In this document: positions 28,471 through 33,966 of the stretch, piece by piece
Position numbering within the stretch: the stretch's first letter is position 1
Layout: each line of letters begins with the position of its first letter
NCBI GenBank assembly: GCA_019358935.1
Contig: JAHHIK010000074.1
Span: forward strand, 1-41,008
Length of the DNA stretch: 41,008 bases
From: Tolypothrix carrinoi HA7290-LM1
GTDB taxonomy: Bacteria; Cyanobacteriota; Cyanobacteriia; Cyanobacteriales; Nostocaceae
Direction of reading: 5' to 3'
The notes under the pieces: generated by a model
What the model saw: the letters and a program-made list of their open reading frames with translations, nothing else
What the model was told of the DNA's origin: nothing
Databases searched by the model: none
Translations under genes and position numbers: made by a program

Positions 28471-28524
28471 GGAGATGAGGGAGATGAGGGAGATGAGGGA
28501 GATAGGGGAGATGGGAGAGATGAG
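28471..28524 (+). repeat. Six GGAGATGAG-type 9-mer units (left arm)
   Basis: Three perfect and three degenerate units; the last contains the ATG of the next gene. Confidence 0.9.
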
Positions 28525-28936
28525 TAGAAAAATTATTAAAGACCATAAGGATTTAGAAGTTTATAAAATGGCTTTTGATTCAGCCATGAAGATTTTTGAA
28601 ATATCTAAACAGTTCCCAATAGAGGAGCGTTACTCACTAACTGATCAGATTCGTAGGTCTGACGCTCGAAGACTCGCTAACGCTTCGCTATCACGTTCAA
28701 TTTGTGCTAATTTTGCTGAGGGATGGCGTAAAAGAAGATATCAAGCTGCCTTTGTAGCTAAATTGAGTGACTGTGAAGCAGAATCAGCGGAAACTCAAAC
28801 TTGGATTGAGTTCGCTGTAAAGTGCAAATACATGGATGTTGAAATCGGTCGAGAACTCTATGGTACATACAACCAAGTTTTAAGCGGTTTAGTACACATA
28901 ATTAACAACCCGTCACCTTGGCTAATTAAGCGTTAA
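28520..28936 (+). CDS. Four helix bundle protein (23S rRNA IVP/TIGR02436/Avd-like family)
   Basis: HKDLEVYK, FPIEERYSLTDQIRRS..SRSICANFAEG and ETQTWIE motifs, with a 10-aa insertion. Confidence 0.9.
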   Translation: MSRKIIKDHKDLEVYKMAFDSAMKIFEISKQFPIEERYSLTDQIRRSDARRLANASLSRSICANFAEGWRKRRYQAAFVAKLSDCEAESAETQTWIEFAVKCKYMDVEIGRELYGTYNQVLSGLVHIINNPSPWLIKR

Positions 28937-29027
28937 CCTCCCCCTCATCTCCCTCATCTCCCTCATCTCCACGCCAGTCGCCTCAACGGAGGGAACCTCC
29001 GCACAGCGCTGGCTCCTCATCCCCCCA
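28937..29027. repeat. CTCATCTCC x3 (right arm, complement of left arm) plus 46-nt small dispersed repeat
   Basis: Perfect units at 28944-28970; element at 28971-29016. Confidence 0.9.
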
Positions 29028-31864: not shown

Positions 31865-31930
31865 ATGTCAGGCGATCGCGAAGTGACTCCGTAGGAGTAT
31901 CGCTTTTACAATTATTCACAAATAAGGGTA

Positions 31931-31959
31931 TTGACAGATACTTGAGCCTGTGCAATTCT
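31931..31959 (+). promoter_or_regulatory. Putative sigma70-type promoter of the hairpin-NYN transcript
   Basis: Perfect TTGACA at 31931, then 17 bp to a weak AATTCT preceded by TG. Confidence 0.4.
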
Positions 31960-31984
31960 ATATCTAGACAGCATAATATCCGCA

Positions 31985-32279
31985 TTCTAAAGCGCAGATT
32001 TTTTTGTATTGTCTCAGCCGCAGGATTCCTAGTTTTCTGCCAAATTTCGGGTCATCCCGTTTGCTGAATATTCAGCCTGATGTCAGGTCAAGTCATTGAC
32101 ATTGATATTCAGTGGGAAGGCAAGATATTTTGATGAATGTTCAGGAAATGGGTTGACTCGGAGTTTGGCAGAAAGCCAGGATTCCTACGGCTGAGACTAG
32201 AATAAAAAATGTGCATGTAGAGAGTTTGGTGTCAGGTATTTACTCATAGAGTTATGAATACTTGCACAAAGCTCTGCTA
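31985..32279 (+). ncRNA. Putative structured RNA / 5' leader: long dsRNA hairpin plus second hairpin
   Basis: 32011-32074 pairs ungapped with 32134-32197 (53 WC, 6 G-U, 5 mismatches). A second stem lies at 32221-32275. Confidence 0.65.
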
Positions 32280-32340
32280 TGGCTAGATGCGTAATTTATT
32301 GATGCTGTCGAGTAAAAATCATAATTCTTTAGGTAAGAAT

Positions 32341-33090
32341 ATGCCTCGACAAACAAGCCCGCAAAAACCATCAATTTCGATTTATTGCGATTTTCAGAAT
32401 GTCTATTCAATTCAAAAGCTAGTGAGTTTATTGCTGGCTTTTGCTAAATCAAAAGGGCGTTTGATTAGCACCAAATTATATTACAATTCACTTTGTAAGA
32501 ACCAGGCTTCTGTAAAAGATAATCTTAATAATTTTGGGATTAGCTTGATTGATGTTCCCTGTCCTCTAAAGAACAGTGCTGACAATCAATTGATAGCTGA
32601 CTGTATTGAGGATATTAACAGTAATCAATCTCCAGACATATTTATTCTTGTATCAGGAGATGGGGACTTTGTAAATTTGGTTCGGATTCTGCAAAAGTTG
32701 GGTAAAAAGGTAATAATCTTTGCTCAACAAGGTAATGTAAAACAAAAGCTGAAAGAGCTTGCGGATGAATTTTACTTTGTAGACAAGTTACCTAATTTAG
32801 TTAAAGAAAATACTCAGCCTCAAACTACTTGTATTGAGTTTCAGATTCATTACAATGAAGCTATAAAGTACCTGATAAAAGCTGTAAAAACTGCGTTAAG
32901 TCAAGGCAAGCAGGCAGGATTTGCTTACATTGACAACTTGATGCGTCAGCTTTGTCCTCACTATCGGGGAGTTTCCTCTATACGTACACCTGATGGAAAG
33001 AAATTTTCACGCTTTATTAAGTTTGTTGATGCTGCTGTGAAAGAAGGGAAAGTGCGAATGCAAAATCAGGAGTTGCTTTTAATAGAGTAA
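32341..33090 (+). CDS. NYN (LabA/DUF88, PIN-like) RNase with C-terminal OST-HTH/LOTUS-like domain
   Basis: IYCDFQN, KNSADNQL, LVSGDGDF and LKELADEF, with acidic residues intact. An alternative start exists at 32287. Confidence 0.88.
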   Translation: MPRQTSPQKPSISIYCDFQNVYSIQKLVSLLLAFAKSKGRLISTKLYYNSLCKNQASVKDNLNNFGISLIDVPCPLKNSADNQLIADCIEDINSNQSPDIFILVSGDGDFVNLVRILQKLGKKVIIFAQQGNVKQKLKELADEFYFVDKLPNLVKENTQPQTTCIEFQIHYNEAIKYLIKAVKTALSQGKQAGFAYIDNLMRQLCPHYRGVSSIRTPDGKKFSRFIKFVDAAVKEGKVRMQNQELLLIE

Positions 33091-33141
33091 TATAAATTGG
33101 CAGCCTGAAGTTGTTTCCCGGAAATACACTATAGCTTTTAT

Positions 33142-33173
33142 AAACCCAGTTTATTTAAACAACTGGGTTTTTT
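33142..33173 (+). terminator. Intrinsic terminator-like hairpin between NYN and rnc
   Basis: AAACCCAGTT-9 nt-AACTGGGTTT followed by TTT. Confidence 0.65.
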
Positions 33174-33240
33174 CAAGTTCATCGGTATTTGCAATTTTAC
33201 AGCCTTCAATTTTGAACACAATAATACTTGGAAGATTTCC

Positions 33241-33966
33241 ATGCAATTAAGTTCCGCAAACGAAAACGAGATAAAAATGCACCAACTTCTGACATTTCGT
33301 GATGAAAAACTTTTACGCAAAGCGTTGACACACCGTTCTTATGTTCATGAAAACCCAGGAGAAGGGGAACATAACGAACGCTTAGAATTTCTCGGTGATG
33401 CTTTGCTAAACTTCTTAAGTGGCGAATATCTTTATCGGCATCACCCAGAAAGGGGAGAAGATGAATTAACTCGTCGTCGTTCAGCATTAGTAGATGAAAA
33501 GCAATTAGCAAAGTTCGCTATCGAAGTAGGTTTAGACTTCAGGATGCGGTTGGGAAAAGGTGCAATTCGAGATGGAGGCTTTCAAAATCAGAATTTGCTT
33601 AGTAGTACTTTTGAAGCAGTTATTGCTGCGTATTATTTAGATAATAATTCAGATATTGAAGCAGTTCGCGCTATTGTTGAGCCGTTATTTGATTCTGTAC
33701 CTGAAAATATTGTAGTATCTCGCTCAAATGTAGACTCAAAAAATCGTCTTCAGGAATGGGTACAACGCAATGTGACTTCAAATCCCCCTAAATATGAGGC
33801 AGTTCAAATAGGTGGTTTGTCTCACGCACCAGAGTATCTCGCCAAAGTGTTTGTGAATGAAAAAGAGTTTGGACAAGGTAAAGGACGCAATAAAAAAGAT
33901 GCTGAAAAAGCTGCTGCTGAAGATGCGCTAGCTAAGTTGAAAAAACAAGGTTTGTTGTTAAGTTGA
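33241..33966 (+). CDS. rnc: Ribonuclease III (paralog) with dsRBD
   Basis: ALTHRS, NERLEFLGDA signature, and dsRBD SKNRLQE...GKGRNKKDAEKAAA. The start may be 33277. Confidence 0.93.
   Translation: MQLSSANENEIKMHQLLTFRDEKLLRKALTHRSYVHENPGEGEHNERLEFLGDALLNFLSGEYLYRHHPERGEDELTRRRSALVDEKQLAKFAIEVGLDFRMRLGKGAIRDGGFQNQNLLSSTFEAVIAAYYLDNNSDIEAVRAIVEPLFDSVPENIVVSRSNVDSKNRLQEWVQRNVTSNPPKYEAVQIGGLSHAPEYLAKVFVNEKEFGQGKGRNKKDAEKAAAEDALAKLKKQGLLLS

Follow-up and report, generated by a model that had tools for sequence, protein, structure and literature searches.

The window, the 41,008-nucleotide stretch of Tolypothrix carrinoi HA7290-LM1 DNA analysed here, carries on its forward strand a gene for an NYN RNase that is followed by an RNase III gene (rnc), both downstream of a predicted promoter and a long structured leader. 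A Uma2 gene is also among the genes of this region. The features of the locus are the following, in window coordinates:

31931..31959, + strand: predicted sigma70-type promoter (TTGACA, 17 nt, extended -10 TG-n-AATTCT), predicted +1 near 31965-31967
31967..31990, + strand: 5' strand of the closing helix P0 from the MFE fold, with predicted pairing to 32283-32310 that competes with the hairpin over the ribosome-binding site (RBS)
32011..32197, + strand: P1, a rod hairpin of 64 bp whose 59-nt loop is structured, from pairing and from covariation in 46 leaders
32011..32016, + strand: left strand of the basal helix, GUCUCA, near-invariant, predicted RNase III cut between U32014 and C32015
32192..32197, + strand: right strand of the basal helix, UGAGAC, predicted cut between G32195 and A32196
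~32217..32291, + strand: second leader hairpin P2, a fold prediction, variable in sequence and missing in some orthologs
32302..32340, + strand: translation-start region, in orthologs with hairpin P3 (UGUCCAG/CUGGACA) over the presumed ribosome-binding site
32341..33090, + strand: NYN (LabA/DUF88-type) RNase with a C-terminal winged-helix, OST-HTH-like tail (PF01936, E 4e-27)
33142..33175, + strand: terminator-like hairpin and U-tract between cargo and rnc
33241..33966, + strand: RNase III with dsRBD (rnc; TIGR02191 above cut-off, plus dsrm), with a family-conserved Met at 33277

The NYN gene, which the original prediction called intact, is confirmed by its PF01936 match, and the residues D17, D81, D107 and D109 are invariant in all 30 aligned sequences. 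The predicted fold of its product resembles the NYN folds of VPA0982 and MARF1, and an in-frame ATG lies upstream of the annotated start, at 32287. The OST-HTH/LOTUS identity that had been proposed for the tail can be taken as a lead only: the top ESM-Atlas matches were OST-HTH (score 0.87) and the tail forms a helix-helix-helix-beta-hairpin in the AlphaFold model, but no Pfam match was obtained.

The downstream gene was correctly recognised as RNase III, given its TIGR02191 and dsrm matches. It is one of two full-length RNase III genes in the genome, the second being located on another contig (C17). The clade of the locus enzyme has Ser at the position of the paralog's active-site Asp, with the motif SST[FL]EA in 134 of 138 matches. 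In Drosha, this position of the first RNase III domain is occupied by Asn, and by this analogy catalytic activity of the Ser-bearing clade, including the locus enzyme, is plausible; given the Ser, the paralog could also be the actual cutter. Sequence comparison did not establish the locus enzyme as an ortholog of Alr0280 or A2542, and the published activities of these two proteins are therefore context only. The terminator-like hairpin preceding rnc may be REP-like, because similar hairpins occur elsewhere in the genome, and a further terminator of the ACCGC type, seen in orthologs, is present here only in degenerate form.

The TTGACA box at 31931 was borne out as part of the predicted promoter, whose extended -10 element is TG-C-AATTCT at 31951-31959; a simple promoter scan missed it because the -10 is non-consensus. 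TTGAC is present in all 46 aligned leaders, a count that is partly circular as these leaders were picked with a profile of the promoter region, and a NANNNT -10 at 17-18 nt spacing, mostly with TG, is found in 42 of them.

Anatomy and copy number of the leader

P1 is the core of a structured 5' leader of about 375 nt, which runs from about 31966 to the start codon. Positions 32011-32074 pair without gaps to 32134-32197, and recounting gave exactly the 53 Watson-Crick pairs, 6 G-U pairs and 5 mismatches reported before; the minus strand of the hairpin likewise has only 2 G-U pairs, two of the five mismatches being A-C. The 396-nt region from the predicted start has a folding z-score of -15.6 on the plus strand and -9.9 on the minus strand, and none of 100 shuffled sequences folded as well as the leader.

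The closing helix P0 comprises 19 pairs, with 87% of its cells paired in the leader alignment, and its covariation is no better than that of shuffles (107 of 500 shuffles were as high). The fold model points to this helix, to a partner at 32283-32310 and to competition with P3, with which P0 has UGUC bases in common. Hairpin P3 itself covaries in the orthologs, with compensatory changes in four of its six pairs (0 of 500 shuffles as high), and is lost in the Tolypothrix genome, where its predicted pairing amounts to 0.1 bp.

The hairpin, first described as unrelated to the repeat families of the window, has no second copy of either arm or of the loop in the 7.96-Mb genome (best other match 25 nt, E 0.002). 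No leader direct-repeat family was found among those listed for this DNA, and a covariance-model search matched the leader to no Rfam family. The single copy, the orthologous position and the covariation speak against a MITE or REP element, and the hairpin is instead a dedicated, conserved RNA element tied to the NYN-rnc locus. A search of the same genome for other hairpins closed by GUCUCA/UGAGAC returned 11 rows, of which the five inspected were coding sequence, a MITE-like repeat or a short unrelated hairpin. Counts of the motif pattern GTCTCA-N110-140-TGAGAC in 21 genomes were at chance level and uninformative.

Conservation of the leader and exchange of the cargo gene

Orthologous loci carry a long stem upstream of NYN in all 47 cases with enough upstream DNA, and rnc follows NYN in all 48 NYN loci (4 of them duplicates). 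In the 201 genomes of the family a match to NYN was found in 64, some of the matches being partial or paralogous, and RNase III in 200. The alignment of 46 leaders comprises the promoter, a conserved 5' end, P1, the variable P2 and the RBS hairpin P3. P1 together with the basal and closing helices shows compensatory changes in 47 of 76 pairs, a value reached by none of 500 shuffles, and in slid controls for P1 the paired share drops from 88% to 32-45%. Fixed columns of the alignment hold 255 G-U against 162 A-C combinations; kinship among the leaders inflates both this measure and the covariation.

To extend the comparison, 100 further regions around rnc or cargo genes were fetched, 60 within the family and 40 mostly from other families, chosen by score and not randomly. 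The element had been regarded as specific to the NYN/OST-HTH gene, which could not be upheld: the leader is likewise found upstream of an HNH protein of 78 aa, of NYNs lacking the tail, of a HEPN-RNase III fusion and, in a single case, of a RelE-type toxin-antidote pair. In NYN-free loci the unit of promoter, hairpin and RBS often stands before an HNH protein of 73-86 aa, a NYN that lacks the tail and belongs to another subfamily, or a HEPN(Swt1)-RNase III fusion, two of these fusions (L051 and L055) having a short leader hairpin.

Defined as a stem score of at least 30 within 2.1 kb upstream of rnc, a long stem was found in 72 of 75 NYN loci and all 14 HNH loci, in none of 13 HEPN-fusion loci, in 4 of 36 loci without assigned cargo and in 13 of 150 random genome windows, counts that are not independent, given the manual selection of the loci by score and their common ancestry. 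Eight of the 36 loci turned out to contain remnants of NYN or HNH, the RelE pair or a contig end, and of the other 28, which are cargo-free, one (L157) has a long stem and another (L091) a short motif-bearing hairpin, in both cases directly before rnc. Since 11 of the 13 HEPN-RNase III fusions have no leader hairpin, a nuclease can occupy the slot without the leader. Among 22 loci with HNH homologs, one of them too short, the long stem is present in 12 of 13 with rnc and in 1 of 8 without it; one locus (L167) combines the hairpin and HNH with no rnc within the 6 kb fetched.

The leaders of an HNH locus (L085) and a NYN locus (L007) are 97.9% identical over 290 nt and their RNase III proteins are sisters (support 98), which shows that one cargo replaced another while the promoter and hairpin stayed in place. 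On a quick IQ-TREE phylogeny of 138 RNase III rows, from which 10 duplicate, truncated or frame-broken loci were omitted, the starred branches force at least 6 HNH and at least 5 HEPN-fusion changes. The leader tracks the cargo slot, not NYN as such. The 27 loci on viral contigs that hold distant relatives of HNH or NYN include none with rnc or a leader match, and for the locus PADLOC returned no more than a partial LabA-like NYN model.

The basal helix as a candidate cleavage site

Of 93 long stems, 80 retain the basal helix GUCUCA/UGAGAC with no more than one mismatch, and several other stems carry the compensatory variants GUCGCA/UGCGAC and GUCUUA/UAAGAC. Across families the remaining stem sequence is unrelated, and stems range from about 45 to 340 nt in length. 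The double cut predicted at this helix would leave a 2-nt 3' overhang, which is described as a hallmark of RNase III in the part consulted of PMC11780869, and would excise a hairpin of 181 nt (32015-32195).

RNA data were available as assembled contigs on the ortholog L035 (word share at most 0.11), and such contigs cannot show ends or levels. In this ortholog, contig 21 of RNA run X5 aligns from position 2147 to 2326; a loose end resembling an adapter precedes this interval, and a single letter beyond it is unaligned. As C2147 pairs with G2324, the contig ends equal a double cut GUCU^CA / UGAG^AC with a 2-nt 3' overhang, and they translate to 32014/32015 and 32195/32196 at the Tolypothrix locus. 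The processing of the hairpin by RNase III, as originally proposed, thus finds a fit in the overhang, but one that comes from a single assembled contig of a related organism, and it amounts to a weak hint of an RNase III-type double cut at the basal helix. In runs X6 and X14 the contigs start 5-30 nt past the predicted start site and run unbroken through the leader and across the predicted right-hand cut. The promoter is crossed by a contig of X9 that is possibly DNA, and by contigs of X1, X2 and X12, which represent DNA or read-through and were not counted. X2 contigs also cross the NYN-rnc gap, and the X2 contigs of 180 nt were not counted because they are probably strain bubbles.

An excised hairpin of about 180 nt could itself be a stable trans-acting RNA, either a type III-like antitoxin or decoy that binds the cargo nuclease or a buffer of RNase III. 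The hairpin contig of X5 has a depth of 114 against 3.8-4.7 on rnc contigs, although such depths cannot rank genes; the stem far exceeds the approximately 22 bp that RNase III needs, and the NYN tail is OST-HTH-like. A trans-acting role is nevertheless improbable, because one leader type serves the unrelated folds of NYN, HNH and HEPN as well as tail-less NYNs, the stem is free in sequence and in length, and repeats like those of type III antitoxin arrays are absent. In particular, an RNA antitoxin specific to NYN, one of the roles first suggested, is not supported for a leader that NYN, HNH and HEPN cargos share.

The rod shape, the Drosha-like basal cut, the variable stem sequence and the neighbouring nuclease also recall a guide or pre-miRNA-like precursor that RNase III would dice into small RNAs directing the nuclease. 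This part of the original prediction lost its ground when a search for trans targets found no match of the leader in 50,697 phage or 72,556 plasmid records (E <= 1) or at any other site of its own genome. The stems are moreover inherited vertically and the cargos have no known guide-binding domain, which makes guide function the least probable of the readings considered.

Possible mode of action and related systems

The anatomy of the leader, its covariation and linkage, the swapping of cargos and the conserved basal helix all come directly from the analysis. The reading that fits them best, with a chance somewhat above even, is that RNase III cuts the basal helix and so silences the message of the swappable nuclease, which would be released when RNase III is inhibited or saturated. 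RNase III would cut GUCUCA/UGAGAC on both strands, and the 49-nt 5' fragment would then be degraded, as in the E. coli pnp leader, with loss of P0. Once P0 is gone, the RBS hairpin P3 would close over the cargo start, and the 5'-monophosphate end of the cut message would attract RNase E/J. The cargo nuclease is presumed to be toxic, and the trigger would be a drop in free RNase III, caused for example by abundant phage or antisense double-stranded RNA. The rnc gene would probably be expressed from its own promoter behind the terminator, with only partial read-through from the leader.

Structure predictions gave a median RBS accessibility of 0.19 for intact leaders and 0.03-0.04 for 3' fragments, a small modelled shift whose direction would be that the intact leader is on and the cut leader off. 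P0 without covariation beyond shuffles, the smallness of this shift and the loss of P3 in the Tolypothrix genome speak against silencing. The opposite is conceivable, with an intact leader that is translationally inert and RNase III freeing the start site, so that a second nuclease would be coupled to RNase III activity. Leaders activated by RNase III exist, as in adhE and the T7 early mRNAs, and after a basal cut the 5' fragment could still hold P0. However, in most of the 46 orthologs the predicted P3 closes more fully in the 3' fragments than in the intact leader, and activation is very unlikely.

A terminator-like hairpin and U-tract was found in the 170 nt preceding rnc at 49 of 75 NYN loci, 5 of 14 HNH loci, 3 of 36 loci without assigned cargo and none of the shuffles. 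At some of the loci, words resembling a -10 element lie roughly 45 nt upstream of rnc, which only suggests an independent rnc promoter. These observations bear on the feedback operator of the original prediction, that is, plain autoregulation of the rncO type, in which leader, cargo and rnc form one transcript through which RNase III limits itself and the nucleases are RNA-decay passengers in an insertion hotspot. Such a leader is known for E. coli rnc according to extracts of PMC3867540 and PMC3997798. At L157 and L091 the hairpin is retained immediately upstream of rnc, RNA contigs span the NYN-rnc gap, and no terminator was called in 26 of 75 NYN and 9 of 14 HNH loci. Yet the long stem is absent in 27 of the 28 cargo-free loci examined despite the near-universal presence of rnc (200 of 201 genomes), the hairpin accompanies HNH at L167 where rnc is absent from the fetched 6 kb, the RBS hairpin P3 is retained for the cargo gene, and every cargo is a nuclease or toxin-like. 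Autoregulation is a serious rival, though on the whole an unlikely one, and the evidence leans towards cis control acting on the cargo nuclease, as against control confined to rnc.

A more far-reaching version of cargo silencing, possible but doubtful, is a guard system, in which RNase III would be the host factor under watch and the hairpin, whatever the cargo, would sense free RNase III; a flood of double-stranded RNA from phages or mobile elements, or a block of RNase III, would then unleash the nuclease occupying the slot, be it NYN, HNH, HEPN or RelE. In E. coli, RNase III acting on rncO is titrated by abundant substrates, and phage transcripts are rich in RNase III sites, as stated in extracts of PMC3867540. 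If the guard reading is true, the locus would represent bacterial sensing of double-stranded RNA load or of RNase III inhibition, a dsRNA-triggered RNase response built from an RNA switch and parallel in logic to OAS-RNase L. It would also explain why two RNase III genes are kept. The corresponding prediction is that only strains lacking an active leader-cargo unit would tolerate the deletion of rnc.

Among known systems, the best reading by analogy is that the cassette would be a form of RNase III-cleaved leader in its mode of action and would resemble the type V GhoST system in its logic. With rncO and the E. coli pnp leader, as far as extracts of PMC3867540 and PMC3997798 describe them, it would share a hairpin in the 5' leader whose two strands are both cleaved by RNase III (here a predicted event), decay of the downstream message and relief by titration. 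Here too a long hairpin lies in a 5' leader upstream of rnc, with a cargo gene intervening in nearly all loci. In contrast to rncO and pnp, the stem spans at least 60 bp and has a fixed basal helix, an exchangeable nuclease takes the place of the first gene, usually with a terminator-like site before rnc, and cargo-free rnc loci mostly have no leader.

In the GhoST system, as outlined in a portion of PMC3997798, an adjacent endoribonuclease silences a toxin by cutting its mRNA, the logic that is proposed here, and a nuclease with an intact motif and putative toxicity indeed adjoins RNase III. However, the 'antitoxin' would be a general RNase III that is kept in nearly all relatives, its target would be the cis leader hairpin, and the putative toxin is an enzyme that varies. 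The cassette is not a member of type V, because RNase III, in 200 of 201 genomes against 64 of 201 with a NYN match, is no dedicated, co-occurring partner; nor is it of type III, because it has no repeats and its cargos are unrelated. The type I toxins of B. subtilis prophages, whose message is kept off by RNase III according to an extract of PMC10989914, would follow the same logic, but the duplex here is intramolecular, no antisense RNA gene or small membrane peptide was seen, and the cargo is an enzyme. Tha was rejected as an analog, as RNase III was excluded there (PMC11087260).

The same protein parts are known from a cyanobacterial HEPN(Swt1-like)-RNase III-dsRBD fusion and from NYN-OST-HTH proteins, which the available passages of PMC3710099 and PMC5499597 predict to be two-headed RNases or stand-alone RNA-degradation systems; these passages mention no RNA leader, nor do they present NYN, HNH and HEPN as interchangeable occupants of one slot. 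Papers on cyanobacterial RNase III, as far as their consulted parts go, treat antisense-duplex decay and plasmid copy control rather than a leader, and their enzymes are not tied to the present clade by sequence (PMC10989914, PMC5829567, PMC13283749, PMC11288750). No RNase III entry was found in the supplement of a Nodularia dRNA-seq study. The RNA element and its cassette are real, conserved and undescribed: no description of the leader-cassette was found in the literature searched, although dRNA-seq start-site tables may already list the transcript.

Defence hotspots may combine a fixed regulator with variable cargo, as with the WYL repressors BrxR and CapW. As in these hotspots, a constant control element here precedes exchangeable nuclease effectors, but the control would be post-transcriptional, through an RNA hairpin and RNase III. 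The locus adds an RNA family absent from Rfam, with a cut site that is predicted precisely, and brings together three nuclease families with separate annotations in a single regulatory slot next to the second RNase III of cyanobacteria. The leader could also serve as a portable RNase III-responsive switch.

Sequences flanking the leader and the NYN gene

A short palindromic element containing HIP1 is located between the Uma2 gene and the predicted promoter (window 31872-31907); comparison with the organism's own genome revealed about 25 similar copies, and the element is unrelated to the leader. At window 32287-32340, an upstream ATG lies within the conserved 3' strand of P0, the closing helix of the leader, in frame with NYN. 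The NYN frame from this ATG is kept in some orthologs, while others have a short or shifted frame. Among the loci compared, L141 and L159 carry a leader stem enlarged to about 340 nt with an unaltered basal helix (GUCUCA/UGAGAC), and in L081 a second partial copy, comprising the RBS region and a truncated NYN, is found about 2 kb 3' of rnc, the RNase III gene.

Gene arrangements and toxin-like pairs beside rnc

In L169 and L170 a divergent RNase III is joined directly to NYN as a fusion. A second RNase III gene stands in tandem with a HEPN-RNase III fusion in L165, L166 and L136, the order in L166 being hairpin, HNH, HEPN-RNase III and RNase III. A gene of about 200 aa, for which no Pfam match was found, recurs in L054, L058, L062, L063, L086 and L088 as the immediate 5' neighbour either of a HEPN-RNase III fusion that lacks the leader or of rnc.

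Type II toxin-antitoxin-like pairs, PIN-like as judged by eye and RelE-type by computation, are inserted immediately 5' of rnc in L135, L143, L066 and L156, so this exchangeable nuclease slot draws RNase toxins generally.

Other inverted repeats

A MITE-like inverted repeat, imperfect and long (about 300 nt), occurs elsewhere in the genome (G000:C9:95496-95729), near a pair that is ParE/ParD-like by eye. In the window, at 28471-28970, inverted repeat arms of 32 nt, at 28471 and 28939, flank a gene encoding 153 aa, presumably of the four-helix-bundle type.
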